Shown here: positions 1-63,276 of the stretch, one piece after another | How the letters are laid out: each line of letters opens with the position of its first letter | How positions within the stretch are numbered: position 1 is the first letter of the stretch | Origin: Eledone cirrhosa | Taxonomy: Eukaryota | Assembly (NCBI GenBank): GCA_964016885.1 | Contig: OZ024740.1 | Coordinates: 11,532,001-11,596,000 of the forward strand | Direction: 5' to 3' | DNA: 64,000 nucleotides | Translations under genes and position numbers: made by a program | The notes under the pieces: generated by a model | Databases searched by the model: none | Told to the model about the DNA's origin: nothing | The model's input: the letters and a program-made list of their open reading frames with translations, nothing else

Positions 1-1982
1 CGTATTGAACAGAACAAATCTTGCAGTTTTGCTTTTTGTTACTCGCTGGTAAACATTCATAACCTTCCAGCTAGCTAATTCTATCGTATTCTCCAATTCC
101 TTAAATTCCTTAATTCCATCGTATTCCCAAACAAAAAAAAACAAAATCCTTCCCATTCTTAATTCTATCGTATCCTCCAATTCCCTAATTCTATCGTATT
201 CTCAAACAAAAAAACAAAAAACAACAAAATCCTTTCCATTCTACTTCTTATAATTTACTTTAAATATATATATCATGCTACCTCGAAAGTCAAAAATCCC
301 GCTCATACACCCCTCACCCACCATTTTCTTCACGAGGGGTTGCGGTCAGCCACTCTCTCTCTCTCTCTCTCCCCCTTCCCACTCTCTCTCTCTCTCTCTT
401 AGCTACACACACACACACACATATATATATAAGATAAATTCCCGTTCATGTTTATTCACTTTCGCCAAACAATTGCTGCTTCAACTACCCCTACTACGGT
501 GTAACCATGTAATCGTAACGTTCACGTTTTTCCTATCTCCTCCACACACCACAATTTCGTACAAACATCCAATCCCGCAAAATCCGAAATCTGTATTTTT
601 TGTTATTTATTAAGGTTTAAATACGGTGTTTTTGTCGTATTGAACAGAACAAATCTTGCAGTTTTGCTTTTTGTTACTCGCTGGTAAACATTCATAACCT
701 TCCAGCTAGCTAATTCTATCGTATTCTCCAATTCCTTAAATTCCTTAATTCCATCGTATTCCCAAACAAAAAAAAACAAAATCCTTCCCATTCTTAATTC
801 TATCGTATCCTCCAATTCCCTAATTCTATCGTATTCTCAAACAAAAAAACAAAAAACAACAAAATCCTTTCCATTCTACTTCTTATAATTTACTTTAAAT
901 ATATATATCATGCTACCTCGAAAGTCAAAAATCCCGCTCATACACCCCTCACCCACCATTTTCTTCACGAGGGGTTGCGGTCAGCCACTCTCTCTCTCTC
1001 TCTCTCCCCCTTCCCACTCTCTCTCTCTCTCTCTTAGCTACACACACACACACACATATATATATAAGATAAATTCCCGTTCATGTTTATTCACTTTCGC
1101 CAAACAATTGCTGCTTCAACTACCCCTACTACGGTGTAACCATGTAATCGTAACGTTCACGTTTTTCCTATCTCCTCCACACACCACAATTTCGTACAAA
1201 CATCCAATCCCGCAAAATCCGAAATCTGTATTTTTTGTTATTTATTAAGGTTTAAATACGGTGTTTTTGTCGTATTGAACAGAACAAATCTTGCAGTTTT
1301 GCTTTTTGTTACTCGCTGGTAAACATTCATAACCTTCCAGCTAGCTAATTCTATCGTATTCTCCAATTCCTTAAATTCCTTAATTCCATCGTATTCCCAA
1401 ACAAAAAAAAACAAAATCCTTCCCATTCTTAATTCTATCGTATCCTCCAATTCCCTAATTCTATCGTATTCTCAAACAAAAAAACAAAAAACAACAAAAT
1501 CCTTTCCATTCTACTTCTTATAATTTACTTTAAATATATATATCATGCTACCTCGAAAGTCAAAAATCCCGCTCATACACCCCTCACCCACCATTTTCTT
1601 CACGAGGGGTTGCGGTCAGCCACTCTCTCTCTCTCTCTCTCCCCCTTCCCACTCTCTCTCTCTCTCTCTTAGCTACACACACACACACACATATATATAT
1701 AAGATAAATTCCCGTTCATGTTTATTCACTTTCGCCAAACAATTGCTGCTTCAACTACCCCTACTACGGTGTAACCATGTAATCGTAACGTTCACGTTTT
1801 TCCTATCTCCTCCACACACCACAATTTCGTACAAACATCCAATCCCGCAAAATCCGAAATCTGTATTTTTTGTTATTTATTAAGGTTTAAATACGGTGTT
1901 TTTGTCGTATTGAACAGAACAAATCTTGCAGTTTTGCTTTTTGTTACTCGCTGGTAAACATTCATAACCTTCCAGCTAGCTA
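1..1982 (+). repeat. 635-bp tandem array (3 full units plus a partial unit, cut by the window start), directly upstream of an RTE LINE 5' UTR
   Basis: Same sequence recurs at an exact 635-bp period (identical 112-aa ORFs at 275, 910, 1545). Units 78-712, 713-1347, 1348-1982; no differences seen by eye. The last unit runs straight into the LINE 5' UTR. Confidence 0.95.
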
Positions 1983-1994
1983 CCCCACATCCCT

Positions 1995-2145
1995 CCCACC
2001 CGCCCCCACACACCACCATTCTTAATACGTGGACCAATCATAAGCCAGAGACCCCCCCCACACGCATCACCATTATTACTATAAGCCAGAGACCCCCCCC
2101 CCCCACACGCATCACCATTATTATTATTACGCGGACCAATCATAA
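1995..2145 (+). promoter_or_regulatory. Putative internal Pol II promoter in the LINE 5' UTR (GC box and two CCAAT boxes)
   Basis: CCCGCCCCC near 2000 and GGACCAATCA at ~2031 and ~2133. The diverged minus-strand copy (29230-29340) keeps GCCGCCCCC and GGGCCAATTA in the same order. Confidence 0.45.
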
Positions 2146-2174
2146 GCCAGAGGCCTATACTATCGCTTGCACGG

Positions 2175-5100
2175 TTGCCTTCGATATATGATGGATGGAT
2201 GGATGGATGGACGGACTGCGGAATCCTGGAGAGTGGAGGGGAGAGAAAAATCTGGACGCTCAGAGCGAAAATGCCAATGCTAAAGTCAAATTCACCTCGT
2301 GGACGAGAATGCGAGCACTCTTCTTTGTTTCGCCCGCGGATGGCTAACATAACCCCATCTCCCCCCGCCCCACACCACCCCCACCCTCCAAACGCGATCC
2401 AAAACTTCAGAGTTGGTACCATAAATGTAGGCACCCTAAAGGGGCGCGCTAACGAGGTTGTAGAAATGCTTGAACGTAAGGAGGTCGATGTTTGTTGTAT
2501 TCAAGAGACCAGGTGGAGGGGTGGGTCTGCTAGATTCATTGAGGGTAAAAAACGATGTTATAAGCTTTTCTGGGTGGGAAACGACGATGGGCTGGGTGGA
2601 GTAGGAATCATGGTAGCAGAAAAGTGGGCGGATAAGATAATAGACGTAAATAGAGTGAACGACAGAATAATTAAAATACGACTTGTCCTCAATAGAACTA
2701 CGGTGACAGTAATATCTGCGTATGCACCCCAATCCGGACTGCCCGGCACTATAAAAGACAGATTCTATGAGACACTGATGCTCACTACCTCCCAAATATC
2801 TGACAGTGACTATATAATTATTGCAGGCGACCTAAATGGTCACGTTGGGCAACATTGTGACGGCTACGACGAAATCCATGGAGGCTATGGGTTTGGTACT
2901 AGAAATGAGGAAGGCTCCAGAATCCTGGAATTCTGTGATGCAAATAACCTAACTATCTGTAACACTAACTTCAAAAAACGTGACAATCACCTGATCACCT
3001 ATAGATCCGGGGAACACACAAGCCAGGTAGATTATATCCTTACCAGAAGACGTGACAGAGTGTCTGTTGTAAACACTAAATCCCTCCCCCATGAAGAATG
3101 CACCTCCCAACATAGACTGATAATTAGCGACCTCATAGTCAGGTCGAGACGTACTCGACAGCAGAAGAGGACTATCCTCAGGAGAAAAATATGGAAGCTA
3201 AAGGACCCCACAGCCAAAAATAAATTTCAAAACATATTACTTGATGCTTTCGACAGTAAGGAAGAACACTTAGAGTCGGACAATATAGAGGGACAGTGGG
3301 AATTTCTGAAAGCAAACCTGCTGTTGGCCACAGACGAAGTCTGTGGCTGGAGCAGGCCTGTAGGCAGGAGGAGAGTAACATGGTGGTGGAACAGTAAGGT
3401 GGAGGAGTCAATTAAGGCCAAAAAGCAGGCTTGGAAAGTATGGCGGGATGGGGGAAGTAGAGTAGACTATCAAGTGGCCAGGAGGGAAGCTAGGAGAGAA
3501 GTGTACTTAGCAAGAAGGGAAGCTGAGGAAAGAAAGTTCAAGCATGTCCTACAACGCGATGACCAAAAACGTGAGGTGTTCAGGATTGCTAGGCAATGCG
3601 TCAAGGAAAACCGTGATATTGTCGGGGAGAAGTGTGTACTTAACGATGATGGCATACTTGCCATCACCGACACTGATAAGAAGGCAGCTTGGAAGTGTCA
3701 CTATGAAAGGCTACTAAATGAGGAGAATAAATGGGAGAAAGACAGTCTCCCCCATGTCGACCCAATAGAGGGACCAGCAGTGTTAGTCGAGGGGAGTATA
3801 ATAAGTAAGGCAATCAAGGATATGAAGACAGGTAAGGCGGCTGGGCCTTCGGAAATAGTTGCTGAGATGCTGAAGGCATCTGGCACGGTGGGACACACCA
3901 TGGTCACCCGCATAGTTAACCAAGTCGTACAGAATGGGGCTGTTCCGAAGGACTGGCATAGCAGCATCATCGTTAACTGTTATAAGGGTAAAGGAGACGC
4001 CCTAGATAGGAGTAACTATAGAGGCATTAAATTAATCGACCAGGTCATGAAGGTCACAGAAAAAGTAATAGCGCAACTAATCAGAGAGAGAATTGACCTA
4101 GATGAAATGCAGTTCGGGTTTGTGTCAGGCAAAAGTACCACAGACGCTCTTTTCATAGTACGACAACTACAGGAGAAGTACCTAGCTAAAGGTAAACCCC
4201 TCTACTTAGCTTTTGTCGACTTGGAGAAAGCCTTCGACAGAGTCCCCCGCTCCATTATCTGGTGGGCTCTTAGAAAACTAGGCGTTGACGAATGGCTTGT
4301 GAGGGCTATACAAGCCATGTATAAAGAAACAGTCAGCAAGGTTAGAATTAACAACGAATATAGTGAAGAGTTTAGCGTAAAAGTTGGCGTCCATCAGGGC
4401 TCTGTTCTCAGCCCCCTACTATTTATTATTGCCCTTCAGGCTATAACAGAGGAGTTCAAGACAGGCTGCCCATGGGAACTCCTATACGCAGACGACCTGA
4501 CACTCATAGCGGAATCAATGGCCGAGCTAGAGAAGAAATTCCAAACATGGAAGCACGGCCTAGAGTCAAAAGGACTTAAAATTAACCTGGCTAAGACCAA
4601 AGTTCTAGTTTGTAGGAAAGAAAACAAGGCGGCGGTCCCTTCTGGGAAATGGTCGTGCTCGGTGTGTAGGAAAGGCGTAGGTAGAAACTCCATTTTGTGT
4701 CCTAAATGCAAAGTATGGGTGCATAAAAGATGTAGTGGGATCACAGGTAAGCTAACTAAGAACATAGATTTTACATGTGGCCGGTGTTCTGGTGCAATAA
4801 GTAGCAGCAAGTGCCCACACAATACTAGCTCTTTCAATTGCGCAGAGGGTTCTATAGAAATAGTGGACAGCTTCCGTTACCTGGGCGATAAAATCAGCAG
4901 TGGGGGAGGGTGCTCTGAAAGTACTGTAGCTAGAGTCAGAACTGGTTGGAAAAAGTTCAGAGAGCTTATACCACTATTAGCTGCTAAAGGGTTCTCCCTA
5001 AAAATGAAAGGCAGGTTGTACGATGCCTGCATACGAACAGCAATGTTGCATGGCAGTGAGACCTGGGCATTGTGTGCAGAGGATATACGCAGACTAGAGA

Positions 5101-5453
5101 GGAACGAAGCTTGCATGCTCCGCTGGATGTGTAACAGTAATATACGTGAACGGCAAAGCATAAACGAACTAAGGAAAAAATTAGAGATAAGAGGGATCAG
5201 ATGTTGTTTACTCGAGAGAAGGCTACGTTGGTATGGACACGTGATGCGCATGAAAGTCGATAGCTGTATAACAAAGTGCAGGGCAATAAAGATAGACGGT
5301 AGCCACGGAATAGGCAGACCTAGAAAAACCTGGGACGAGCTGATAAACTCCGACCTCACACACTTACACCTCTCCAAGACAATGTCACTGGACCGAGACC
5401 TTTGGCGGTACTCAGTAACAGAGAAGACCCGCCTTGCCAGTAGGCATCTCTAA
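2175..5453 (+). CDS. RTE LINE ORF: APE endonuclease + reverse transcriptase with inserted PHD finger
   Basis: 1092 codons, no stop. Endonuclease motifs GTINVGTL, CIQETRW, SAYAP, AGDLNGH, SQHRL; RT motifs [23 protein letters not shown] (4485-4496); C4HC3 finger at 4656-4787. The annotated start is TTG; the real start is more likely an in-frame ATG at 2202, 2271 or later. Confidence 0.92.
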   Translation: MPSIYDGWMDGWTDCGILESGGERKIWTLRAKMPMLKSNSPRGRECEHSSLFRPRMANITPSPPAPHHPHPPNAIQNFRVGTINVGTLKGRANEVVEMLERKEVDVCCIQETRWRGGSARFIEGKKRCYKLFWVGNDDGLGGVGIMVAEKWADKIIDVNRVNDRIIKIRLVLNRTTVTVISAYAPQSGLPGTIKDRFYETLMLTTSQISDSDYIIIAGDLNGHVGQHCDGYDEIHGGYGFGTRNEEGSRILEFCDANNLTICNTNFKKRDNHLITYRSGEHTSQVDYILTRRRDRVSVVNTKSLPHEECTSQHRLIISDLIVRSRRTRQQKRTILRRKIWKLKDPTAKNKFQNILLDAFDSKEEHLESDNIEGQWEFLKANLLLATDEVCGWSRPVGRRRVTWWWNSKVEESIKAKKQAWKVWRDGGSRVDYQVARREARREVYLARREAEERKFKHVLQRDDQKREVFRIARQCVKENRDIVGEKCVLNDDGILAITDTDKKAAWKCHYERLLNEENKWEKDSLPHVDPIEGPAVLVEGSIISKAIKDMKTGKAAGPSEIVAEMLKASGTVGHTMVTRIVNQVVQNGAVPKDWHSSIIVNCYKGKGDALDRSNYRGIKLIDQVMKVTEKVIAQLIRERIDLDEMQFGFVSGKSTTDALFIVRQLQEKYLAKGKPLYLAFVDLEKAFDRVPRSIIWWALRKLGVDEWLVRAIQAMYKETVSKVRINNEYSEEFSVKVGVHQGSVLSPLLFIIALQAITEEFKTGCPWELLYADDLTLIAESMAELEKKFQTWKHGLESKGLKINLAKTKVLVCRKENKAAVPSGKWSCSVCRKGVGRNSILCPKCKVWVHKRCSGITGKLTKNIDFTCGRCSGAISSSKCPHNTSSFNCAEGSIEIVDSFRYLGDKISSGGGCSESTVARVRTGWKKFRELIPLLAAKGFSLKMKGRLYDACIRTAMLHGSETWALCAEDIRRLERNEACMLRWMCNSNIRERQSINELRKKLEIRGIRCCLLERRLRWYGHVMRMKVDSCITKCRAIKIDGSHGIGRPRKTWDELINSDLTHLHLSKTMSLDRDLWRYSVTEKTRLASRHL

Positions 5454-5807
5454 CAAAATACACCCCGTCCCACCACCACCACCCCCACCCCATCCACACC
5501 ACCCCGTCCTATGTAAAGTTATGTTGGTGCCGCGCCATCCGGGCCGAAACAAATGAGATCGTGTAGGTGTCACGACAAAAAAACACACAGTCCACGCTGT
5601 AATGTGGCCGTGTAGGCAACACGGTAAAAACCTCCCAGACCCACACTGTAAATGTGGTTGGTGTTAGGAAGGGCATCCAACTGTAGAAAACCTGCCAGAC
5701 AGTCCTATGCGAGCAAGACAATCACTCTTGCCTCAAGTGGGACTACCCCCGTCCAAACCCATGCAAGCGTGGAACACGGACGTTAAACGTTGATGATGAT
5801 GATGATG

Positions 5808-5852
<45 letters not shown>

Positions 5853-5927
5853 GTATATGTATGTGTATATGTATATATATGTATATATCTATATATATAT
5901 ATGTGTATATGTATATATGTATATGTG

Positions 5928-5956
<29 letters not shown>

Positions 5957-5958
<2 letters not shown>

Positions 5959-6291
5959 CATCATCATCATCATTTTATGTCTGCTTGTTACCTGCTTGCA
6001 AGGGTGCGACAGGAACTGATTCTGGCTTGATTTCTACGGCTGGATGCCCTTCCTAACACCAACCTCATTTACAGTGAGTGCTGGGTGCTTTTTTTCTGTG
6101 GCACCTCCACGTCCACTTTGCAGTGGCATGATAGGGACCCCAGTCCTATCATCTCATTTCTACAGCTGAGTAAACTGGAGCAATGAGAAATAAAGCGTCT
6201 TGCTCAAGGAAACAACACATCACCTGGTTTGAGAATTGAATTCCCAACCTTTCGATTGCAAGGCCAATGCTCCACTAAGCCATGTGCCTCC
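5957..6291 (-). mobile_element. tRNA-derived CORE-type SINE with RTE-derived tail
   Basis: Read on the minus strand: GGAGGCACATGGCTTAGTGG (A box), B-box-like GAGTT/GAATTCAATTCTC, CORE-like CCTTGAGCAAGAC...CAGTTTACTCAGCTGTAGAAATGAG, AGGAAGGGCATCC tail segment, (GAT)n end. Several near-identical copies in the window. Confidence 0.85.
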
Positions 6292-6357
6292 ATTTCATAA
6301 TGAATATGAAGTCTGCCATGGAGCCTACAAGGCTGCCTCCTACTTCAGCAGTGAAAA

Positions 6358-6475
6358 GTTATAACTGTATATATATGTTATAACTGTATATGTTATAACT
6401 GTATATATGTTTGTTATAACTGTATATATATGTTATAACTGTATATGTTATAACTGTATATATATGTTATAACTG
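6358..6475. repeat. Minisatellite of GTTATAACTGTATA(TA)n units between two ~65-bp direct repeats
   Basis: About 7 units. The flanking block ATTTCATAATGAATATGAA...CTTCAGCA.TGAAAA occurs at ~6292-6357 and ~6582-6647. Confidence 0.8.
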
Positions 6476-7124
6476 TGTGTATCCAGTTTAGAATAAGTAC
6501 ACCATATCCCGGCATGTCAAAGGTAAATAGAGAGTTGGCACCAGGAAGAACATCTGAGCAGAAAACAATGTCTCAAAAAGGATTTCATAATGAATATGAA
6601 CTCTGCCATGGAGCCCACAAGGCTGCCTCCTACTTCAGCAATGAAAATGGCCTTTGAACCTTCGTTGTTATATTTAACTTCAATCATAGTAACTTTAAAG
6701 AAATGGCGAAGTGTTTGATTAAATGCCTTATGATGTTTGTTCCAGCTGTTTTTGAGGTCAACTTTGCCTTTCAACCTTCGGGGTGTGATGCATTACAAAA
6801 TTATTAGAAGGCCAGATGGGATGCCTTGTAGTATCTGTACCAACTCTGCGTTGTAAGTTCAAACCTTCCTCCTGTCCCCAGGAATATGGTAATAGTAGGA
6901 CTGGGACTCCTATCATAGAAGGCAGGCTAAACCCACACAGGTATGAGCCCTAACAACATTAACCCCACTTAGTTTTCTTTATCTCATTGGTAAATAAAAA
7001 AGCTAAAGGGCAATGCACCTTTTAATACCAACTTATTAACAGAGCATAAACCTCCATTGCTATGGATAGTCCCCAAATCTATCTCACCTATTATTTGTCC
7101 CAAAATACATTAAAGGAGTAGAGA

Positions 7125-7388
7125 TCACAGCTCTGATACTATGGGCATGTGGTTAGAATGTCTCAGGAAAGAATCGTTTGACAGATTTTATGGGCAAATC
7201 CAAGTGAAAGGAGACCCAGGGGTAGACCCCGAACAAGATGGTTGGATAACATCCATAGACATGGCTGGTCACACTTGGAGATCCAGCTGGATTAGTTGGA
7301 GATGGTTACTTCTGACAGGACCTGCTGGGAGGAGTGTTTGAGGACTCTGCCCTCACAACCCTCTCAGGAATAAGTGGGTGAAGAAGAG
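7125..7388 (+). mobile_element. Old RTE 3' fragment (separate family)
   Basis: Translates with stops to YGHVVRMSQER...RRPRGRPRTRWLDNI, the RTE C-terminal motif; ends in a short GAA repeat. Confidence 0.6.
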
Positions 7389-7607
7389 ATAGTCAATCAG
7401 AATTTCTGATATAAAGTCCCTCACACATTGCTTGCTTGTGTAAGAATAGTTGCTTTTACTGAGGAAGGCATGAGAGTCATTACTTCTCTTTTTCATCTTT
7501 GAGCGTTGATGCCTATTGAATATATCATTACCTTATTGTACTTAATTGCTTCTATTGTTGTTCTGAGTTAAAACCCTCTGACGATAGATTTTTACCTGTT
7601 ATCTTTT

Positions 7608-7830
7608 ATCATCAACGTTTTTAAAGCCTGTTTTTCCATGCTTGCATAGGTTGGAAGGGTCTTTTCAGTACAGCATCTCTTCACTCACTGTGTTCCTTTG
7701 TCATCTCTCCTGTGAGTCTCAGTGATTTGAGGTCAGCTTTCACCACTTCTGCCCATGTCTTCCTTGGTCTGCCTCTACTGCAGTTTCCCTCCACTGGGAT
7801 CTCCTGACACCTCTTCACCCAGCAATTATC
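7608..7830 (-). mobile_element. RTE 3' remnant with short 3' UTR (family D-like)
   Basis: Minus strand encodes [15 protein letters not shown], then the terminal hairpin and GAT tail. Resembles 39733-39968. Confidence 0.6.
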
Positions 7831-9216
7831 TTGGGTTTGATAAAATCAGAACAACTTAGCTGTTAGTTAATTTACAGAAAAATAACAAGATTACAGGGCC
7901 AGAATAAATACAGCAAGGTATTTATTCTGGCTCTTCACCTTCTGAGTTGAAATTCTGTCAATGTTAATTTTACTTAAGTTTTCTTCAAGGATGATAAAGT
8001 AACACTCCAGAACAGTGACCTGGTAGAATTGTTTTGGAAGCAGGTCATAATAACCAGAGCTTCTAAAACTTCCTTCAAATTTAAGTCTCCAAGACTTTCC
8101 TCAAAATTCTTGCTCTTCCTAACAAGGCTGTCTTATGTGTATATTGTTATTTCTATTCTGAGATTTCAAGCCAACTTCCTAATTTCCAGACACTGTTGTT
8201 TGAGATCCATATACTTGTTTATCTTGATTATAAAGGAGGTGGGTAGGCAAAATCGGTAGATCATCAGACAACATGCATATAGTTACAACCCTTTATGTTC
8301 TGAATTAGCTTTGCCTTTCATTTTTACTGGATCGATAAAATAAAATACCAGTAATACTCGGGTCGATTTAATTGATTTTATCCTTCTCTTCAAATTACTG
8401 ATGTTGTGCCTAAAATAAATGCAATCATTATTATAATCCATATCACAGACTGATCTTGTGTCAGTTTTACAGTCACAAGAGTAATTAATAACCAATAATC
8501 AGAGATAAATTACTAATCTTTCATGAGTTCAATTTTTTTAGTACCCTACTAAGGATCTTTGTAGTTGCTAATAGTGAGTTGTTTTTTCCTAATAGTTCTG
8601 TTTGTATTTGAATTCTGATCTTCTCCAATCATAATTTAATTTTCTTCGTGATTCTAAGAGTATTCCCTACAACTGGTACAATTTCAACTTTTTTTTATAC
8701 TTCCATATTCTAACAGTTTTCCATTTCAGATTTTGCTATTTCTGGATTATTTTCTAGTTCTTTCTCATACTCCCTGTTATCACTTGATGATACTCCCTAT
8801 TATCATTTGATGTTGCGACATTTTTGAACAGTGTCTCTCCTTTTTTTTTTTCGATGTCCTCAGGCATGCCTTCCAGCCGGTCATGTCAGAAGCAACCATC
8901 TCCAATTGATCTGACTGGATCCCTATTTGATAATATTGCATGTTGAAATCACAATTTTATTTCCTCATTTTCCTCTACTTACAGTTAAACCACCTATCAG
9001 CTCTGTTCAAATTGTATTTTGCTCACAGTTACCAATGAACAGTGCATGTAATATTGTTGTATTTTACATACTTTTTATCCCAGTTTACTGTGTTCACTCA
9101 CTATGGCTGATGCTGTCACCTTTTTTATCAAAAAGTCTACATGATTCCTCATCCTTATCTATGAAGTCTTTCATATAATTTGTTCTATGTGCCTGTTCTT
9201 GTGTTACACAGATTAA

Positions 9217-22440: not shown

Positions 22441-22788
22441 ATCATCATCATCATCATCATCATCATTTTACGTCCGCTTTTCCCTGCTTGCAAGGGTGGG
22501 ACGAGAACTGATTCTAGCTTGATTTCTACAGCTGGATGCCCTTCCTAACACCAACCTTATTTACAGTGAGTGCTGGGTGCTTTTTTGCCATGGCACCTCC
22601 ACGACCACTTTGCAGTAGAATGATAGGGACCCCAGTCCCTATCATTTCATTTCTACAGCTGAGTAAACTGGAGCAATGTGAAATAAAGTGTCTTGCTCAA
22701 GGAAACAACACATCACCCGGTCTGAGAATTGAAATCACAACCTTTCGATTGCAAGGCCAATGCTCTAACCACTAAGCCATGTGCCTCC
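22441..22788 (-). mobile_element. Full-length tRNA-derived CORE-type SINE
   Basis: Same head/CORE/tail layout as 5957-6291, with (ATC)n at 22441. Confidence 0.88.
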
Positions 22789-25338: not shown

Positions 25339-26482
25339 TCATAATCTATAAAGCTCAGTGTGTGGTCATGCTCCTTTCTTATAGAAATCTACGATATAGA
25401 ATTTCTTCAATTGAAATTTACAATTCAGTATTCAAAATAGTTTCGATTGCGTCTTGGCACATCTCATTTTTTCAATTTCACCCACAATTACGCAAAAAAT
25501 AGATAAAACAATATTTTACGATTTTTCTCTGTCATTTAAACTGCTAAACTCTTTCCAAGCTTGATGGTGATACTGTCCGTTTTACTCTCTCATATCATCT
25601 GCTTACCTCTATCTACAACCCACACATTTTGCTACTTTCTCTTTTATACTTCAAATTATTACATTTCATACGAAACGACAATTATTCAAAAGCAACAGAT
25701 ACATTTATTCAACAACAAGCGATAAATCTTTTTTAAAACCTCTTTTCCAAACGCATACAAACACACACTCACTTCAACAACAACAACAACAACAATCTGC
25801 CTTTTATAGATAATGATAAACAATAATATCCTCTATGAGGTCACTAAACCTGCTAGAAACAGCAGCTAACTCTCCCCCATACCACACCCCTCCCTACTGT
25901 CTTAAATTTAGAAAACATATCTTCTATGAGGTCACTAAACCTGCTAGAAACAGCAGCTAAATCTCCCCCATATTACACCACTCCCTACTGTCTTAAATTT
26001 AGAAAACACATATCCTCTATGAGGTTACTAAACCTGCTAGCAACAGCAGCTAACTCTCCCCCATATCACACCCATCCCTACTGTCTTAAATTTAGAAAAC
26101 ATATCTTCTATGAGGTCACTAAACCTGCTAGAAACAGCAGCTAACTCTCCTCCATATCACACCACTCCCTACTGTCTTAAATTTAGAAAACACACAGACA
26201 ACCATGCAGAACACTCCATCGCAGCTCTGTTGTTCGGCTGGCATCGTCTACGCGCGTGTTGTGCAAGTACTGTGAAACAATAAATTTCAACACTTTTTTG
26301 CACAGAGATAATATCCATAGGCGAAACTACAATTGTCACTGCTGGCGCAGCTCCTGCTTCGGCAGTCCAGGTCTGCAATTCATTCAGTGCCTGGCAGACA
26401 AAAAAGTGCTGCCATAAAATGGGTGGTGCAACCTAACTTTGGTAACTTAATGACCCCGAGCGACGCCGGGCTTTAATGCTAG
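25339..26482 (+). mobile_element. Helitron-like element containing a minisatellite
   Basis: TC start within a TA tract; 3' GC-rich CCCGAGCGACGCCGGG followed by CTAG|T at 26479-26483. 5' boundary uncertain. Confidence 0.55.
25826..26192. repeat. Four-unit ~92-bp tandem repeat with alternating unit types
   Basis: ATGAGGT.ACTAAACCTGCTAG starts at 25835, 25926, 26019, 26110 (spacings 91, 93, 91). Unit starts alternate CCTCTATG / CTTCTATG. Confidence 0.9.
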
Positions 26483-26716: not shown

Positions 26717-28168
26717 TTCGCAAGAAGGAAATCAGAGGAAAGAAAGTTCAAGCATGTTCTACAACATGAGGACCAAAAACGTGAGGTGTTCAGGATTGCT
26801 AGGCAATGTGTCAAGGAAAACCGTGATATTGTCGGGGAGAAGTGTGTACTTAAGGATGATGGCATATTTGCCATCACCGACGCTGATAAGAAGGTAGCTT
26901 GGAAGTGTCACTACGAAGGCTACTAAATGATGAGAATAAATGGGAGAAAGACAGTCTCCCCCACATCGACCCAATAGAGGGACCAGCAGTGTTAGTCGAG
27001 GGTAGTATAATAAGTAAGGCAATCAAGGATATGAAGACGGGTAAGGCGGCTGGGCCTTCGGAAATAGTTGCTGAGATGCTGAAGGCATCTGGCACGGTGG
27101 GACACACCATGGTCACCCGGATAGTTAACCAAGTCGTACAGAATGGGGTTGTTCCGAAGGACTGGCATAGCAGCATCATCGTTAACTGTTATAAGGGTAA
27201 AGGAGATGCCCTAGATAGGAGTAACTATAGAGGCATTAAATTAATCGACCAGGTCATGAAGGTCACGGAAAAAGTAATAGCGCAACTAATCAGAGAGAGA
27301 ATTGACCTAGATGAAATGCAGTTCGGGTTTGTGTCAGGCAAAAGTACCACAGACGCTCTTTTCATTGTACGACAACTACAGGAGAAGTACCTAGCTAAAG
27401 GTAAACCCCTCTACTTAGCTTTTGTCGACTTGGAGAAAGCCTTCGACAGAGTCCCCCGTTCCATTATCTGGTGGGCCCTTAGAAAACTCGGTGACGACGA
27501 ATGGCTTGTGAGAGCTATACAAGCCATGTATAAAGAAACAGTCAGCAAGGTTAGAATTAACAACGAATATAGTGAAGAGTTTAGCGTAAAAGTTGGCGTC
27601 CATCAGGGCTGTTCTCAGCCCCCTACTATTTATTATTGCCCTTCAGGCTATAACAGAGGAGTTCAAGACCGACTGCCCATGGGAACTCCTATACGCAGAC
27701 GACCTAACGCTCATAGCTGAATAAATGGCCGAGCTAGAGAAGAAATTCCAAACATGGAAGCACGGCCTAGAATCAAAAGGCCTTAAAATTAATCTGGCTA
27801 AGACCAAAGTTCTAGTTTGTAGGAAAGAAAATAAGGCGCCGGGCCCTTCTGGGAAATGGCCATGCTCAGTGTGTAGGTAAGGCGTAGGTAGAAACTCCAT
27901 TTTATGTCCCAAATGCAAAGTATGGGTGCATAAAAGATGTAGTGGGATCACAGGTAAGCTAACTAAGAACATAGATTTCACATGTGGCCGGTGCTCTGGT
28001 GCAATAAGTAGCAGCAAGTGCCCACAAAATACTAGCTCTTTCAACTGCGCAGAGGGCTCTATAGAAATAGTGGACAGCTTCCATTACCTGGGTGACAAAA
28101 TCAGCAGTGGGGGAGGGTGCTCTGAAAGTACAGTAGCTAGAGTCAGAACTGGATGGAAAAAGTTCAGA
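26717..28168 (+). mobile_element. RTE family A internal fragment (A2), truncated at both ends
   Basis: Matches A1 ~3510-4960 with frameshifts and stops. Starts after a TA-rich run and ends fused to an inverted copy. Confidence 0.92.
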
Positions 28169-29766
28169 ATTCTCACTGTTCCTCTGTATTGTACGACTCT
28201 AATTGCTCTTCCTTACTATCAAAAGCATCAAGTAATATGCTTTTAAATTTATTACTGGCTGTGGGGTCTTTTAACTTCCATATTTTTCTCCTGAGGATAC
28301 TCCTCTTCTGTTGTCGAGTACGTCTCGTCCAGACTATGAGGTCGCTAATTATGAGTCTATGTTGAGAGGTGCATTCTTCATGGGGGAGGGATTTAGTGTT
28401 TACAACAGACACTCTGTCACGTCTCCTGGTAAAGATATAATCTACCTGGCTTGTGTGTTCCCCCGATCTATAGGTGATCAAGTGATTGTCTCGTTTTTTG
28501 AAGTTAGTGTTACAGATAGTTAGGTTATTTTGGAGCCTTCCTCATTTCTAGTACCAAACCCATAGCCTCCATGGATTCCGTCATAGCCGTCACAATGTTG
28601 TCCAACGTGGCCATTTAGGTCGCCAGCGATAACTATGTAGTCACTGTCGGTTATTTGGGAGGTAGTGAGCATTAACGTCTCATAGAATCTGTCTTTTATA
28701 ACGCCAGGCAGTCCAGATTGTGGTGCATATGCAGATATTATTGTCACAGTAGTTCTATTGAGGACAAGTCTTATTTTAATTATTCTGTCGTTCACTCTAT
28801 TTAAGTCTATTATCTTATCTGCCCACTTTTCTGCTAACATGATTCCTACTCCACCCTGCCCATTGTCATTTCGCACCCAGAAAAGCTTATAACATCGTTC
28901 TTTACCCACAATGAATCTAGCAGACCCACCCCTCCACCTGGTCTCTTGAATACAACAAACATCGACCTCCTTACGTTCAAGCATTTCTACAACCTCGTTA
29001 GAGCGACCCTTTAAGGTGCCTACATTCATGGTACCAACTCTGAAGTTTTGGATTGCGTTTGGAGGGTGGGGTGGGGGTGGATTATGTTAGTCATCCTCGG
29101 CCGAAACAAGGAGGAGGAGTCCTTGCATTCTCGTCCGGCAGCATGAGGTGAATTTGTCTTTATCTTTGGCATTGTCACTGAGTGTCCAGATTTTTTTTTT
29201 CTTTTCAAACTCTCCAGAATTCCGTAGTCCATCCATCATATCGAAAGGCAACCAGTTAAATGATAGCATAGGCCGCTGACTTATAATTGGCCCACGTAAT
29301 AATGGTGGTGCGTGGGGGCGGCTGGGAGGGATATGGGGTATTTCGCGAGAAGATTAAGGTTTAAATAAGATCCCCGTATTTTGGGCATAATTTAACAAGC
29401 ATAAAAGATACAAGATTTGTTTTGAAAAATACGCTAGAATTATCGAATAGAAAAGCAACAAGGATTGGATTCTGGGATAAATGATACAGATTGATGAATG
29501 GACTAAGGAATTAAAATGGAGAGAAGAGTGAAGAAATAGCAATTAGTACGTTACATTTCACCGTGCGTGCACCTAGCCTGAAATAGGGTTGGCGGTTTTT
29601 GTGTTTCGTACTTGCAAAGGATTTATTTTATATTTGGAGAGCGCGGAAGGGATTGGGGGCGAACCAGCATGATATAGAGGGGGGTGGGGTGAAGATAGGA
29701 GGGAGCAGAGGTTAAGAGTTTAAATAAAGTCCTCGTATTTGGGGCATAATTTAACAAGCATAACAA
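28163..29766 (-). mobile_element. RTE family A 5' part (A3, diverged subfamily): endonuclease region, 5' UTR and upstream ~359-bp repeat
   Basis: ORFs 28520-29029 and 28173-28481 match the A1 endonuclease; 29230-29340 matches the A1 5' UTR. A ~50-bp block recurs at ~29355 and ~29713. Confidence 0.88.
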
Positions 29767-29833
29767 ATATATATAGATATATAAATATATATATATATAA
29801 ATATACATATATATATATACATATATATATATA

Positions 29834-31060
29834 TAAGACCAAAGTACTAGTTTGTAGGAAAGAAAACAAGGCGGCGGTCCCTTCTGGGAAATGGTCGTGC
29901 TCGGTGTGTAGGAAAGGCGTAGGTAGAAACTCCATTTTATGTCCTAAATGCAAAGTATGGGTGCATAAAAGATGTAGTGGGATCACAGGTAAGCTAACTA
30001 AGAACATAGATTTTACATGTGGCCGGTGCTCTGGTGCAATAAGTAGCAGCAAGTGCCCACAAAATACTAGCTCTTTCAATTGCGCAGAGGGTTCTATAGA
30101 AATAGTGGACAGCTTCCGTTACCTGGGCGATAAAATCAGCAGTGGGGGAGGGTGCTCTGAAAGTACTGTAGCTAGAGTCAGAACTGGTTGGAAAAAGTTC
30201 AGAGAGCTTATACCACTATTAGCTGCTAAAGGGTTCTCCCTAAAAATGAAAGGCAGGTTGTACGATGCCTGCATACGAACAGCAATGCTGCATGGCAGTG
30301 AGACCTGGGCATTGTGTGCAGAGGATATACGCAGACTAGAGAGGAACGAAGCTTGCATGCTCCGCTGGATGTGTAACAGTAATATACGTGAACGGCAAAG
30401 CATAAACGAACTAAGGAAAAAATTAGAGATAAGAGGGATCAGATGTTGTTTACTCGAGAGAAGGCTACGTTGGTATGGACACGTGATGCGCATGAAAGTC
30501 GATAGCTGTATAACAAAGTGCAGGGCAATAAAGATAGACGGTAGTCACGGAATAGGCAGACCTAGAAAAATCTGGGACGAGCTGATAAACTCCGACATCA
30601 CACACTTACACCTCTCCAAGACAATGTCACTGGACCGAGACCTTTGGCGGTACTCAGTAACAGAGAAGACCCGCCTTACCTAAATATATAGTAAAACCTA
30701 CTCCAGCCAGTAGGCATCTCTAACAAAATACACCCCGTCCCACCACCACCACCCCCACCCCATCCACACCACCCCGTTCTATGTAAAGTTATGTTGGTGC
30801 CGCGCCATCGAGGCCGAAACAAATGAGATCGTGTAGGTGCCACGACAAAAAAACACACAGTCCACGCTGTAATGTGGCCGTGTAGGCAACACGGTAAAAA
30901 CCTCCCAGACCCACACTGTAAATGTGGTTGGTGTTAGGAAGGGCATCCAACTGTAGAAAACCTGCCAGACAGTCCTATGCGAGCAAGACAATCACTCTTG
31001 CCTCAAGTGGGACTACCCCCGTCCAAACCCATGCAAGCGTGGAACACGGACGTTAAACGT

Positions 31061-34262: not shown

Positions 34263-34578
34263 ATCATCATCATTTTACGTCCGCTTTTCCCTGCTTGCAA
34301 GGGTGGGACGGGAACTGATTCTAGCTTGATTTTTACAGCTGGATGCCCTTCCTAACACCAACCTCATTTACAGTGAGTGCTGGGTGCTTTTTGCCATGGC
34401 ACTTCTACGACCACTTTGCAGTGGAATGATAGGGACCCCAGTCCTATCATCTCATTTCTACAGCTGAGTAAACTGGAACAATGTGAAATAAAGTGTCTTG
34501 CTCAAGGAAACAACACATCACCCGGTCTGAGAATTGAACTCACAACCTTTTGATTGCAAGGCCAATGCTCTAACCGCT
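34263..34578 (-). mobile_element. tRNA-derived CORE-type SINE, 5' end clipped
   Basis: Same sequence as 22441-22788 without the first ~15 nt. Confidence 0.88.
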
Positions 34579-34623: not shown

Positions 34624-37116
34624 CCCTTTAGCATTCAAACCGACAAGATTATGTCCTTTTTCATTTATTCAAACCGACAAAAACCGACATTTAATACCAC
34701 ACGGAGATCTCCTTCTAAAAATAAACATTGACATCATCGAAATCTCGTCAATTTGAGATTACTGCGAGATAAAGCCCTTACGCGCGAAAATTAACTCTTA
34801 GTATAGTTAAAGAACTTGAGATAACACGTGTTTTTAACGTTGAAAGTGTAACATGGCTTCCGAAAGTAGCGACAACGAATTTGAAGGTTTTACGTCCGAC
34901 GACATTCGAGATCAAAAAGAAACAGAAGATAATATCAGTGATTTATCTTCAAACGAATCAGATATATTTATTTTTGATATATCTGATAATGATGATAGTC
35001 ACTTTGAAAATGAAAGAGAAGATATAACTGACACCATTGAAAAAACACCAACGTGGTTGAAAGAAACAACACCGATACATGTTTCGGATTTTACTGAAAA
35101 TATTGGACCACAACAAACATTACCACCCGATGCTAAAGCACTGGGTTATTTATTTTTTTTTTTATCACAAACTTTCTTCGAAGTTGTGGCAAATCGCTAT
35201 GCACAACAACAGATTTCTAATATCGGAAAACCCGATCTGTTATGGCGTCCGACAGATTCTGCCGAAATGAAAGCGTTTTTTACCATAAACATTATGTTTG
35301 GTATTAAACAATTTCCACGACTGTGGAATTATTGGAGTACTGATATAAGGTTTGGTGACCCTTATATATCTAGTATTATGGCAAAAACGAGATTCATCAA
35401 ATTAAACCAGTGTTTGCATCTGGTTGATACTTCAAATGCCCCTGGTAGAAATGAATCAAATTACGACCCACTGTACAAAGTACAACCATTAATTGAAATG
35501 TTGTCAGAAAAATTTAAAAGTGTGTATATACCTGGATAAAATCTTAGTGTTGATGAAGCTATGATTGGGTATAAGGGTAGGGTTCATTTCAGACAGTATA
35601 TGCCAGCTAAACCCACCAAATGGGGCATCAAAGTGTGGGAACTGTGTGAATCGGACACAGGATACTGTGTAAACTTTGATGTTTACACAGGAAAAAAACA
35701 TAACGGAGAGAAAAAACACGGGTTGGCTTACGATGTTGTGTGGTCACTGACTCAACCCTTCCACTCTCAACACAGACATATTTATTTTGACCATTTTTTT
35801 TCTTCGGTGCTTTTAGCAGAGGATCTTGCCCTTGTAAATACATACACCTGCGGCACAATAATGAGCAATCGGAAAGGGCTACCCCAAGAAATAAAAGAGA
35901 ACATGTTAGCCACAGTGTTCAAAGACAAACGGCAAATTTTGTTCCTGAGTTCTAACCAACAATCAGGTGTTGGGGCTGAGGGTAGACCTTTAGTTAACCT
36001 CTCCTACAATAAATATATGGGTGGGGTTGACAAATCTGACCAATATTGTGCTTATTACCCAGTTGGGCGCCCTGGAAAGAAATGGTGGAGATACATCTTG
36101 TGGTTTTTAGTGAATTTAACCATTGTGAATTCTTTTATTGTATTTACTATAAGCCACAAGAATCCGCCACCACCAAAGGACTACTGTCATATGAAGTTTT
36201 GCGTGGACATTGCATCCCAGCTACGTGGAGGAAATACTTCTCGCAAACACAAAGCTGGGAAAAAATCAAAATTAGCAGTGGTCCACAAAGAAAATATTGA
36301 TTTTCATAAAGTGGAGAGAATTGATGGTAGGAGGAAGGTTTGCCGATTGTGCTCTTTGCAAAAGAGAAAAACTGTTAAAGGTTACGCAATCCAAACCCTA
36401 TTTATGTGTTCCTTTTGCAAAGTGCCATTATGTAAAGGGTGCTTTGGGCAGTATCACGATAGAAATATTGTCTGACAATATTGAAAACAATATTTTAAAA
36501 ATATATTAGAACACATATACAAAAACACCTGCATTCACCTGTGTCACACCTGTTAATGAACTTATATATTGGGAACACTCTGTTACATAAATTTACACCG
36601 TACATTGTGTAAGAGTACATTGCCAATATTATTTTGACTGGTGAAAAGGTTTTATACATTTTTTTCAATGAAAATATTTGCCTGGAATCTAGAGAAAGAC
36701 TAAAACCTTGTACTGATTACACCTGCATTTTTAATTAATTCACCTGTTCGGAAAACTGCTAGAATTGATGGAAATCAGCATGTAGGTCATTATTGGATTT
36801 TTTTGGCAACAAATCTAACAGGTAAGGCAGATAAAGTTTAAATTTTTGTGTTTATCCATGAAGTTATTACTTTTACACCTGTTAATTAATTTCACCTGCT
36901 CATAAAAGTCAAATTTAACAAAAAATATCAGATAAAAATATATAATTGTAAATTATAGTTATTTAAACATCTACTGACAAAATTTGAAGTCTGCACATAG
37001 AAAATTAAAGTAATTACAAACAAATAAAATTGATAACCCTCTTGAGTATAATTAAGTGAAAATAATGCGAATAGCTGAACATGACATTTGACAATTCAAT
37101 GTGAATGCTAAAGAGT
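34624..37116 (+). mobile_element. Full-length piggyBac transposon (~2.5 kb) with TTAA target duplication
   Basis: TTAA|CCCTTTAGCATTCA ... TGAATGCTAAAAGAG|TTAA (TTAA at 34620-34623 and 37117-37120); internal transposase. Confidence 0.92.
34853..36475 (+). pseudogene. piggyBac transposase (PGBD4-like) with an in-frame stop
   Basis: ORFs 34853-35539 and 35561-36475 share a frame, separated by TAA at 35537-35539 just before NLSVDEAM. Motifs KPTKWGIKVW, YFDHFF, YNKYMGGVDKSDQ and a C-terminal Cys-rich domain are present. Confidence 0.88.
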
Positions 37117-38914: not shown

Positions 38915-39260
38915 ATGGCTTAGTGGTTAGAAAATTGGCCTTGCAATCGAAAGGTTGTGAGTTCAATTCTCAGACTGGGTGATGTGTTGTTTCTTTGAGC
39001 AAGACACTTTATTTCACATTGCTCCAGTTTACTCAGCTGTAGAAATGAGATGATAGGGACTGGGGTTCATATCATTCCACTGCAAAGTGGTCGTGGAGGT
39101 GCCACGGCAAAAAAGCACCCAGCACTCACTGTAAATGAGGTTGTTGTTAGGAAGGGCATCCAGCTGTAGAAATCCAGCCAGAATCAGTTCCCGTCCCACC
39201 CTTGCAAGCAGGGAAAAGTGGACGTAAAATGAAATGATGATGATGATGATGATGATGATG
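38915..39260 (+). mobile_element. tRNA-derived CORE-type SINE with (GAT)n tail
   Basis: A box TGGCTTAGTGG, B-box-like GAGTTCAATTC, CORE-like segment, RTE tail, terminal hairpin. Confidence 0.9.
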
Positions 39261-43079: not shown

Positions 43080-45443
43080 ATTGCCAGGCAATGTGTCAAG
43101 GAAAACCGTGATATTGTCCGGGAGAAGTGTGTACTTAAGGATGATGGCATACTTGCCATCACCGACGCTGATAAGAAGGTAGCTTGGAAGTGTCACTACG
43201 AAAGGCTTCTAAATGAGGAGAACAAATGGGAGAAAGACAGTCTCCCCCACATCGACCCAATAGAGGGACCAGCAGTGTTAGTCCAGGGTAGTACAATAAG
43301 CAAGGCAATCAAAGATATGAAGACGGGTAAGGCGGCTGGTCCTTCGGAAATAGTTGCTGAGATGCTGAAGGCATCTGGTTCGGTGGGACACACTATGGTC
43401 ACCCGGATAGTAAACCAAGTCGTACAGAATGGGGTTGTTCCGAAGGACTGGCGTAGCAGCATCATCGTTAACTGCTATAAGGGAAAAGGAGATGCCCTAG
43501 ATAGGAGTAACTATAGAGGCATTAAATTAATCGACCAGGTCATGAAGGTCACGGAAAAAGTAATAGCGCAACTAATCAGAGAGAGAATTGATCTAGATGA
43601 AATGCAGTTCAGGTTTGTGTCAGGCAAAAGTACCACAGACGCTCTTTTCATTGTACGACAACTACAGGAGAAGTACCTAGCTAAAAGTAAACCCCTATAC
43701 TTAGGTTTCGTCGACTTGGAGAAAGCCTTCGACAGAGTCCCCCGTTCCATTATCTGGTGGTCTCTTAGAAAACTAGGTGTTGACGAATGGCTTGTGAGAG
43801 CTATACAAGCCATGTATAAAGAAACAGTCAGTAAGGTTAGAATTAACAACGAATATAGTGAAGAGTTTAGCGTAAAAGTTGGTGTCCATCAGGGCTCTGT
43901 TCTTAGCCCCCTACTATTTATTATTGCCCTTCAGGCTATAACAGAGGAGTTCAAGACCGGCTGCCCATGGGAACTCCTATACGCAGATGATCTAACGCTC
44001 ATAGCTGAATCAATGACCGAACTAGAGAAGAAATTCCAAACATGGAGGCACGGCCTAGAATCAAAAGGCCTTAAAATTAACCTGGCTAAGACTAAAGTTC
44101 TAGTTTGTAGGAAAGAAAATAAGGCGGCGCTCCCTTCTGGGAAATGGCCATGCTCAGTGTGTAGGAAAGGCGTAGGTAGAAACTCCATTTTATGTCCCAA
44201 ATGCAAAGTATGGGTGCATAAAAGATGTAGTGGGATCACAGGTAAGCTAACTAAGAACATAGATTTTACATGTGGCCGGTGCTCTGGTGCAATAAGTAGC
44301 AGCAAGTGCCCACAAAATACTAGCTCCTTCAACTGCGCAGAGGGTTCTATAGAAATAGTGGACAGATTCCGTTACCTGGGTGATAAAATCAGCAGTGGGG
44401 GAGGGTGCTCTGAAAGTACAGTAGCTAGAGTCAGAACTGGATGGAAAAAGTTCAGAGAGCTTATACCACTATTAGCCGCTAGAGGGTTCTCCCTAAAAAT
44501 GAAAGGCAGGTTATACGATGCCTGCATACGAACAGCAATGCTGCATGGCAGTGAGACCTGGGCATTGTGTGCAGAGGATATACGCAGACTAGAGAGGAAC
44601 GAAGCTTGCATGCTCCGCTGTATGTGTAATAGTAATATATGTGAACGGCAAAGCATAAACGAACTAAGGAAAAAATTAGAAATAAGAGGGATCAGATGTT
44701 GTTTACTCGAGAGAAGGCTACGTTGGTACGGTCACGTGATGCGCATGAAAGACGACAGCTGTATAACAAAATGCAAGGCAATAAAGATAGACGGTAGCCA
44801 CGGAGTAGGCAGACCCAGAAAAACATGGGACGAGCTGATAAATTCCGACCTCACACACTTACACCTCTCCAAGACAATGTCACTGGACCGAGACCTTTGG
44901 CGGTACTCAGTAATAGAGAAGACCCGCCTTACCTAAATACAAAGTAAAAACCTACTACAGTCAGTAGGCATCTCTATCAAAACACACCCCCGTCCCACCA
45001 CCTCCACCCCATCCACACCGCCCCTTTCAATGTAAAGTTATGTTGGTCCCACAACATCCAGGCCGAAACAAATGAGATCGTGTAGGTGTCACGACAAAAA
45101 AACACACAGTCCACGCTGTAAACGTGGCCGTGTAGGCAACATGGTAAAAACCTCCCAGCCCCACACTGTAAATGTGGTTGGCGTTAGGAAGGGCATCCAG
45201 CTGTAGAAAACCCGCCAGACAGTCCACGCTGTAATGTGGCCGTGTAGGCAACACGGTAAAAACCTCCCAGCCCCACACTGTAAATGTGGTTGGTGTTAGG
45301 AAGGGCATCCAACTGTAGAAAACCCGCCAGACAGTCCTATGCGAGCAAGACAACCACTCTTGCCTCAAGTGGGAAAACCCCCGTCCAAACCCATGCAAGC
45401 GTGGAACACGGACGCTAAACCTGATGATGATGATGATGATGAT
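43080..45443 (+). mobile_element. 5'-truncated RTE family A copy (A7) with a duplicated 3' UTR segment
   Basis: [11 protein letters not shown]...EKTRLT* (to 44936); ~113-bp tandem duplication at 45106-45337; (GAT)n tail. Head-to-tail behind A6. Confidence 0.95.
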
Positions 45444-51070: not shown

Positions 51071-51198
51071 ACCATGGTCACCCAGATAGTAAACCAAGTC
51101 ATACAGAATGGGGTTGTTCCGAAGGACTGGCGTAGCAGCATCATCATTAACTGTTACAAGGGTAAAGGAGATGCCCTAGATAGGAGTAACTATAGAGG
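51071..51198 (+). repeat. 128-bp inverted duplication of 50801-50928
   Basis: Shares A8-specific variants (CCCAGATAGTAAACC, GTCATACAG, ATCATTAACTGTTAC); one mismatch seen. Confidence 0.9.
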
Positions 51199-54100: not shown

Positions 54101-54212
54101 AGTCCTATGCGAGCAAGACAATCACTCTTGCCTCAAGTGGGACTACCCCCGTCCAAACCCATGCAAGCGTGGAACACGGACGTTAAACGTTGATGATGAT
54201 GATGATGATGAT
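51195..54212 (+). mobile_element. Near full-length RTE family A copy (A9) with internal deletions
   Basis: Runs from EGKKRCYKL to the (GAT)n tail. Deletions near 51920, 52407 and 53597. Shares the EKTRLASRHL* end with A1. Confidence 0.94.
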
Positions 54213-62380: not shown

Positions 62381-62607
62381 GAAAACTATCCCAATCTGAT
62401 TTAGATGACAGAGCCATGGATGCTCTTAAAGAATTTCCTGCTGAAGATGCTGTATCTGTGTTGAAGCAGTTTTGTGATAGCAGCCTGGAACATGTTGCAA
62501 ACAAAAGTGCATTCTTATGTGGACAGATGAAGATGTTTCGACAGAGAACAAAAATACAGGGAATCCCAAATTCTGCTGCAAAGGGCCCTGATGAAACCAA
62601 ATTAAAA
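62381..62607 (+). CDS. SYNCRIP: hnRNP Q/R (Syncrip) homolog, second coding exon (N-terminal helical/NURR domain)
   Basis: Acceptor TTTTTCTTTATTCTAG| and donor |GTATGC (phase 0). Encodes KLSQSDLDDRAMDALKEF...VLKQF..S.LEHVANKSAFLCGQMK.FRQR...KGPDETKLK, which follows hnRNP Q/R DLDERAI.AL.EF...HVQNKSAFLCGVMKTYRQR...GPDEAKIK. Confidence 0.93.
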
Positions 62608-62664
62608 GTATGCTGCCAATTCTTTGATATTTACTACACATATATGCACGCACGCACGCACGCA

Positions 62665-63085: not shown

Positions 63086-63276
63086 TTATGATAGGACCGG
63101 GGCCCCTTTTCATTAAAGCACTCAAAACTTCTTATAAGATGCAAGATCGTAGGAAACCAGCTAAACCTGATTATGTGTGAGCTGTAAATTTAACATTTCA
63201 GATTTTTGATTATAGAGATTCCTTCAGTTGTTTTCAATGACTATAGTGAGTAATGGAGTGGGTCTTCTATTGAACA

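Follow-up and report, generated by a model that had tools for sequence, protein, structure and literature searches.

We analysed a 64,000-nucleotide stretch of Eledone cirrhosa DNA (GCA_964016885.1, contig OZ024740.1, positions 11,532,001 to 11,596,000; hereafter the window). It opens with a tandem array of 635-bp units that leads into an intact long interspersed nuclear element (LINE) of RTE type, here named A1. A second copy, A3, lies on the minus strand and also retains its 5′ untranslated region (UTR). A preliminary description of the stretch had proposed that the array belongs to the element, for which it would act as a self-renewing promoter. The two copies and public sequencing runs were compared, and the tandem 5′ monomers are very probably carried by the element.

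The intact copy A1 and its RTE relatives

The array occupied positions 1..1982 on the plus strand. It comprised three 635-bp units plus 77 bp, and Tandem Repeats Finder (TRF) reported 3.1 copies at 100%. Comparison of each position i with i + 635 gave 0/1347 mismatches, the first difference being at i = 1348. In the phase set by the UTR, the units lie at 78-712, 713-1347, and 1348-1982, and the final 77 bp of one more unit precede them. The array ran off the start of the window, so the three units at A1 are a minimum. It met the 5′ UTR at 1983 without a spacer. The three apparently identical, directly joined units of the preliminary description were thus confirmed.

Every monomer opens with two subrepeats of ~84 bp (76% in self-BLAST; 1346..1512 for one unit), in which TAATTCTATCGTAT occurs three times. 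The 3′ core of the monomer, at 1831..1982, holds ATCCAATCC, CGTATT..AACAAATCTTG, and AACCTT. Its start was marked by a step in read depth at 1831, it showed homology to 29341-29500 at A3, and it was common to all monomer variants seen. An LTR-like (long terminal repeat) or 3′-derived repeat was rejected as the identity of the A1 unit, since BLAST matched the unit to no other part of the window, microsatellites aside. A tRNA-type head was also rejected (ARAGORN, 0 genes).

The non-repeated part of the 5′ UTR (hereafter the tether) spans 1983..2339 on the plus strand. It contains CCGCCCCC at 2000 and CCAAT at 2034 and 2136, which we take to be a GC-box-like word and CCAAT boxes; all are retained in A3. 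A BLAST search with 1906-2500 bore out the statement that only A1 and A3 retain the 5′ UTR in the window. The first ATG of the A1 frame is at 2199, and the ATG equivalent to that at 29094 in A3 is at 2340. The single intact open reading frame (ORF; 2199..5453, plus strand) encodes 1084 aa, with an APE endonuclease, a reverse transcriptase (RT), and a PHD-like Cys/His insert (aa 820-863). This PHD-like finger (window 4656-4787) lies behind the RT core and is also present in many relatives. The 3′ UTR (5454..5813, plus strand) has ~340 bp before its terminal (GAT)n repeat at 5790-5813. It is followed by a (TA)n-type microsatellite at 5814..5958, likely the insertion target.

RTE elements are described as having a single APE and RT ORF, a simple-repeat 3′ end, and a very short 3′ UTR (PMC2887409). 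In A1, endonuclease, RT, and PHD matches lay in a single frame, and a (GAT)n 3′ end was found in A1 and in other copies. The 3′ UTR of ~340 bp is not of the very short kind; as that kind is described as typical, and RTE-2_OV likewise has ~600 nt (PMC9115989), this was not taken as excluding membership. Six short ORF motifs occur in the RTE reference set (PMC2887409 supplements), as motif matches rather than a tree. By eye, NvRTE-a01 and Branchiostoma-a02 (PMC2887409 supplements 2, 8) also have the Cys/His-rich insert that follows the RT core. L1 and R2 structures matched the A1 ORF only at E 1e-29 or weaker.

Full-length protein relatives were 37-54% identical, many with the same PHD match (among 120 listed of 179). 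The best named shorter protein match, at 60%, was from Octopus bimaculoides. RTE-BovB elements are reported to be greatly expanded in cephalopods (PMC10294476). A metagenome scan gave 37 loci, none of which matched the unit or the UTR; only one (L001) reached the N-terminus of the ORF, with ~150 bp upstream. Prokaryote and viral scans gave no matches.

Monomers in the window and in sequencing runs

A3 consists of a tether and the 5′ part of the ORF (28163..29340, minus strand); it is broken, and its 3′ part is lost. Its UTR was 84% identical to that of A1 (195/232 aligned bases), and its ORF was 93% identical in two blocks (461/496 and 325/350). A3 is fused tail-to-tail with a plus-strand copy, the pair spanning 26717-29766, with a 6-bp overlap at 28163-28168 and both 3′ ends lost. 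Upstream of the A3 UTR, a ~60-bp segment is present twice, 359 bp apart and about 90% alike. The repeat thus spans 1.2 periods. One complete monomer of 359-360 bp (29341..29700, minus strand) is followed upstream by a remnant, the 3′ 66 bp of the next monomer (29701..29766, minus strand), which forms the element's 5′ end. The complete monomer is related to the A1 unit in its last ~150 bp. The remnant begins a few bases after the unit position of AACAAATCTTG, the best-conserved motif. A (TA)n run at 29767..29835 adjoins it, and a plus-strand copy at 29834 has its 5′ end on this run too. The A3 repeat was absent from the TRF output. The repeat of ~359 bp reported earlier before A3 was therefore right in its spacing; as an array it did not hold up, with 1.2 periods and no TRF report.

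The two monomers share short motifs in the same order. Their positions in A1 and A3 were 269 and 29676 for TATATCATGCT, 496 and 29564 for ACGGTG, 567 and 29470 for ATCCAATCC, 636 and 29433 for CGTATT, 648 and 29421 for AACAAATCTTG, and 696 and 29361 for AACCTT. Alignment of the whole A1 unit with the region upstream of A3 gave z values of 3.05-4.35 under five scorings. Scores as high were reached by 0, 4, 9, 0, and 0 of 500 shuffles and by 1, 11, 54, 1, and 1 of 750 genomic controls. Because the core was delimited by read depth (1831-1982), the division of the unit into core and rest was independent of A3. Under two scorings, the match of the core to A3 29341-29500 was equalled by 15 and 1 of 2000 shuffles and by 0/1888 genomic controls. 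That of the rest was equalled by 187 and 849 of 2000 shuffles and by 31 and 398 of 1888 genomic controls. The matches of TATATCATGCT and ACGGTG are unsupported on their own, because the rest of the unit scores like chance.

For word lengths k = 6-9, ordered chains of exact words between the A1 unit and A3 were equalled in 29, 11, 4, and 25 shuffles out of 2000. Among genomic controls the counts were 18-53/940, and 0/940 at k = 7 and k = 8 with the A1 microsatellites masked. The best single ungapped match was unremarkable (17/300 shuffles reached it). The subrepeat region matched A3 weakly (76/2000 shuffles, 0/1126 genomic controls). TAATTCTAnCGTAT occurs 9 times in the A1 array, once in the A3 unit, and nowhere else; it was chosen after the comparison and so was not counted as a test.

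These alignments indicate kinship between the A1 and A3 monomers in the last ~150 bp and do not demonstrate any in the remainder. The motif positions given in the preliminary description were all correct, and the core beat the shuffled controls that it had proposed; similarity beyond chance was limited to this 3′ part, the rest scoring at chance level. It had also seen a different monomer in another subfamily. The lengths do differ, but with a shared 3′ core the A3 monomer is not an unrelated replacement. Between subfamilies, the monomer appears to have been remodelled rather than replaced, leaving diverged relatives with a common core.

Four of 12 public sequencing runs were compared with positions 1348-3400 at 85% likeness. 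X1 and X4 are contigs from two samples of organism A in one study, and X1 may be the source of the assembly. X10 consists of raw restriction site-associated DNA sequencing (RAD-seq) reads of organism A from another study and is biased. X5 consists of contigs of organism B from another study. In all contig sets, depth is not equal to copy number. In X1, exact-match unit contigs at 1456-1574 and 1710-1875 had depths of 997 and 1186, and rare rearranged contigs had depths of 7-28; the copy number of the exact unit in X1 is roughly tens to over a hundred. In X4, an exact unit contig at 1728-1881 had a depth of 68, a tether contig 81, and near-identical ORF contigs 346 and 442.

X4 also contained a sister core contig with a depth of 1555. 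It ran through 1832-1977 and continued with 30 letters identical to 1456-1485, which is a head-to-tail joint. X5 contained a joint from 1974 to 1832 with 21 letters between and a depth of 22, giving a unit of about 165 bp. Further X5 joints ran from 1977 to 1448 and from 1985 to 1448, and depth was zero over 1486-1830. Depth rose stepwise at 1831 in 4/4 runs. Thus, besides the 635- and 359-bp monomers of the window, the reads contained a sister type of greater depth and a form of ~165 bp. The monomers keep their 3′ core while their length and middle change. The unit is multi-copy, tandem outside the assembly, and variable in length around the kept core.

A triplication created by the assembler at the contig end would fit the perfect identity of the units, microsatellite and poly-A lengths included, and their place at the window's first base. 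This explanation is very improbable. The exact unit was far deeper than the rare contigs in X1, and sister-unit head-to-tail joints were found in X4 and X5. Present in many copies and joined head-to-tail in both a second sample and organism B, the unit is neither single-locus nor an invention of the assembly, two outcomes that the preliminary description had named as refuting it. It is possible that a longer array was collapsed and that the unit count at A1 is wrong.

The flanks were also compared. The A1 repeat ends exactly at the TACCCC that starts the tether, and the A3 repeat ends about 10 bp before it. A TA run (8 or more, within 30 bp) was found at 10/13 chosen 5′ ends, versus 4.7% of 20,000 random positions, and at 7/11 3′ ends of family copies. 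The 13 5′ ends are a manual selection, which excludes six joints of internal rearrangements and seven short hits to the 3′ tail. Two pairs of 5′ ends each lie on one run, so the distinct sites with a TA run number 8/11. A TA run adjoins the A3 remnant, and both tether starts lack one. The monomers would therefore lie within the insertions, provided that (TA)n is the target. RTE family copies were seen in (TA)n at both ends, at 5814, 26717, 29834, 32005, 40198, 43080, 51052, 56581, and other positions. RTE insertion sites have been called not sequence-specific (PMC2887409).

The common UTR boundary, the shared 3′ core, the A3 repeat at (TA)n, and the multi-copy head-to-tail unit together supported the earlier claim that the array is part of the element. 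Several observations speak against it. The linkage of unit to UTR is known from two copies, A1 and A3, and the TA run at A3 is shared with the copy at 29834, which slightly weakens the flank argument. Outside the core, the homology between the two monomers is at chance level. No contig formally bridging unit and tether was among the pieces listed (24 of 5620); an X4 contig at 1998 had 37 letters to its end but did not extend the 31 letters into the unit that a bridge requires. The A1 joint from 1982 to 1348 was not among the joints listed (15 of 26), 1473-1500 being masked and the unit start subrepeated. In X4, the depth of the sister core (1555) was about 19-fold that of the most abundant tether contig (81). 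Some monomers may thus be located in long arrays or away from elements.

The same depths bear on an independent satellite family, into which the LINE would have inserted or which it would have captured twice. In its favour, core depth was far above tether depth, about 19-fold in X4. The raw reads of X10, with the bias of RAD-seq, numbered about 230-265 at the core versus 12-32 at the tether start, and the A1 array extends beyond the window. Summed depths in X1 were about 7,300 for the core versus 3,800-8,100 for the tether, a ratio of order 1-2. With ratios of about 19 in X4 and 1-2 in X1, long arrays or free satellites are indistinguishable from short element-borne arrays. However, the 3′ flank of A1 is (TA)n rather than unit, and truncated copies adjoin (TA)n at their 5′ ends. 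Elsewhere in the 64 kb, the unit occurs only as a diverged relative at the A3 tether, and both are in the same phase. We consider an independent satellite family of this kind improbable.

A putative promoter and other features of the window

A1 differs by about 1% from its nearest copies, with 2 private changes in 805 ORF columns. By arithmetic, units diverging at the rate of the A1 ORF would show about 7/1347 differences, and 0 were observed. The identity of the units reflects recent expansion or homogenisation, or private changes that came from the source element, or collapse of a longer array by the assembler. The observed/expected CpG ratio was 1.31 in the A1 unit and 1.18 in the A3 unit, versus 0.61 and 0.58 in the ORFs; the values of the units were reached by 1/89 and 3/158 other windows. 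The units thus escape the CpG depletion of the ORF, and the A3 5′ end lies just after the best-conserved motif, which together make a putative self-renewing promoter plausible. We lean towards element-borne 635-bp units that each carry a putative promoter, the array renewing a promoter that would otherwise be lost in retrotransposition.

Such renewal might proceed in three steps. Transcription would start within a unit, close to its 3′ end and just past the conserved core. A transcript from an upstream unit would then consist of a short remnant, at least one whole unit, the tether, and the ORF, and copying into a (TA)n site would give the structure of A3 (66-bp remnant, whole unit, tether), the one copy that suggests this step. 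Finally, unequal crossing-over, possible because the remnant and the unit end form a direct repeat, would regrow and homogenise the array, yielding identical units as in A1. An A3 5′ end a few bases past AACAAATCTTG is the layout expected if a core promoter fires near the unit end. It is possible, though on balance doubtful, that a run-in promoter relay evolved independently in this RTE lineage, the promoter of unit n-1 firing about 65 bp before the unit end. Equally tentative is the proposal that full-length daughters are born as remnant, whole unit, and tether, and that their arrays regrow, at some loci into macrosatellites that vary between individuals. The monomer-plus-tether reading itself predicts 5′ ends and start sites about 65 bp before the unit end. 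The monomer variants of 165-635 bp delimit a candidate promoter of ~150 bp.

Other findings count against promoter activity in the monomers. Their GC content is just 37-39%, unlike the CpG islands of mammalian L1. GC-box- and CCAAT-like words occur in the tether and none in the monomer. The proposed start site is based on one 5′ end (29766).

The promoter may instead reside in the tether. The monomer would still be element-borne, but its tandem state would be a neutral by-product of unequal crossing-over after insertion, which sometimes creates a long satellite. This is the main rival, and we regard it as unlikely yet well ahead of the other alternatives. The GC-box-like and CCAAT words are retained in both tethers, and A3 has just 1.2 periods. 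Homogenisation in place is suggested by the identity of the A1 units despite 2 private changes in 805 ORF columns and by the almost zero X1 depth of some A1 alleles. The ratio of sister to A1-type units was about 3 in X1 versus about 23 in X4, which also fits. However, a promoter in the tether upstream of its start would be single-copy and lost in each round. Furthermore, two subfamilies 7% apart in the ORF have the repeat boundary in common, and organism B again shows head-to-tail joints. The core has been retained despite changes in the middle.

Another way of defining the 5′ end would be a self-cleaving ribozyme in each unit that trims it, as twister variants do in the RTE element Perere-3 (PMC8501958). 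The A1 core folded somewhat better than shuffles (z -2.2, 7/200), but the A3 core had no stable fold (z +0.4). A search of either region gave zero Rfam ribozymes at E<=10 and nothing at gathering score, which a very divergent ribozyme could escape. The hammerhead core word CTGANGA was absent from both strands of the A1 unit and from the sense strand of the A3 unit. Of the alternatives considered, we hold this to be the least probable.

The window contained further repeats. One RTE copy (51071-54212) has shuffled internal segments, corresponding to A1 3897-4024, 2538-3823, and 3974-5812. A short repeat family (6021-6123, 22523-22615, 34330-34421, and 39080-39182) has ~100 bp in common with the LINE 3′ UTR, at about 80%, and is likely the tail of an RTE-dependent short interspersed nuclear element. 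A 91-bp tandem repeat of four copies lies at 25826-26194, and a 112-bp duplication lies in the 3′ UTR of one copy (45106-45337). A 33-bp minisatellite (63276-64000; about 21 copies, 96% matches) reaches the window end. At 34853-36475 there is a split DDE_Tnp_1_7 transposase with a zinc finger, presumably piggyBac-like. At 62416-62613, an acidic domain marks an exon of an hnRNP Q/R-like host gene, within or close to which the LINE cluster may be situated. Another LINE family, which is broken, was found at 46350-48488; it combines an RT with C2H2 zinc fingers at the C-terminus, similar to what is reported for RTE-2_OV (PMC9115989).

Comparison with known systems

Few LINE clades have a known means of keeping their promoter through reverse transcription. 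The route that we found in print for RTE is that of Schistosoma Perere-3, in which a 5′ twister-variant ribozyme self-cleaves under upstream host promoters (PMC8501958). Perere-3 likewise has a means of keeping its 5′ end; a ribozyme was not found in the present element. The A-modules of the Dictyostelium element TRE5-A are tandem and variable in number, and the 5′ repeats of trypanosome SLACS/CZAR are further possible precedents. TRE5-A is a non-LTR element outside mammals with a modular 5′ promoter that includes the A-module (PMC5391098, PMC4559204). Unlike the present RTE element, it has two ORFs and targets tRNA genes.

Among RTE elements, the present one resembles NvRTE-a01 of Nematostella and Branchiostoma-a02 in its single APE and RT ORF, RT motifs, Cys/His insert, and simple-repeat 3′ end. 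The passages on these elements in PMC2887409 mention no 5′ tandem array. Compared with the RTE elements described there, the 3′ UTR here is longer (~340 bp), and insertions favour (TA)n. RTE-2_OV of Octopus vulgaris has a single ORF of ~1100 aa, a microsatellite 3′ end, and a C2H2 zinc finger (PMC9115989). The present element, also an RTE LINE, has one ORF and a microsatellite at the 3′ end as well, but it carries a PHD-like insert in place of the C2H2 finger. The 5′ UTR of RTE-2_OV, ~600 nt, came from a transcript assembly, and the main text does not contain the word "tandem" (PMC9115989). If RTE elements carry such monomers, their consensus sequences may be missing the true 5′ ends when derived from short reads or transcripts. 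We found no description of 5′ monomer arrays in RTE elements in the open-access literature (titles, abstract starts, and passages), with Repbase and Dfam outside this scope.

The closest layout is that of rodent L1. Mouse and rat L1 carry monomers of ~200 and ~650 bp and a tether of ~250 bp (PMC5381506). Young mouse families average 3-4 monomers, two monomers are more active than a single one, and the 5′ ends form clusters inside monomers (PMC9022269). As in mouse and rat L1 (A, Tf, and Gf monomers), tandem units here are followed by a better-conserved, non-repeated tether and then by the ORF. The two copies known have at least 3.1 units (A1) and 1.2 (A3), with a partial unit at the 5′ end of A3; read depths would fit several units per tether, without linking the two. 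The 635-bp unit is close in length to the ~650 bp of the rat, and CpG is not depleted. In mouse L1, promoter activity and the clustering of 5′ ends have been demonstrated; in the RTE element they are predicted. The monomers of rodent L1 subfamilies are unrelated replacements; those described here are diverged relatives with a common 3′ core.

A monomer-plus-tether 5′ end in an invertebrate RTE would mean that the design of rodent L1 had a second origin, in a clade remote from L1. If units also relay transcription as proposed, monomer arrays would be a general solution, invented repeatedly by LINEs, to the loss of the promoter, and satellites would be born from them. The surprise is tempered, as the monomer-plus-tether design is already known from L1. 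The element itself is assigned to the RTE clade, with a single ORF where L1 has ORF1 and ORF2, an invertebrate host, and AT-rich units. Taken together, its 5′ end is best read as a monomer-plus-tether structure like that of rodent L1, probably of separate origin within the RTE clade: L1-like in layout, but not a member of L1.

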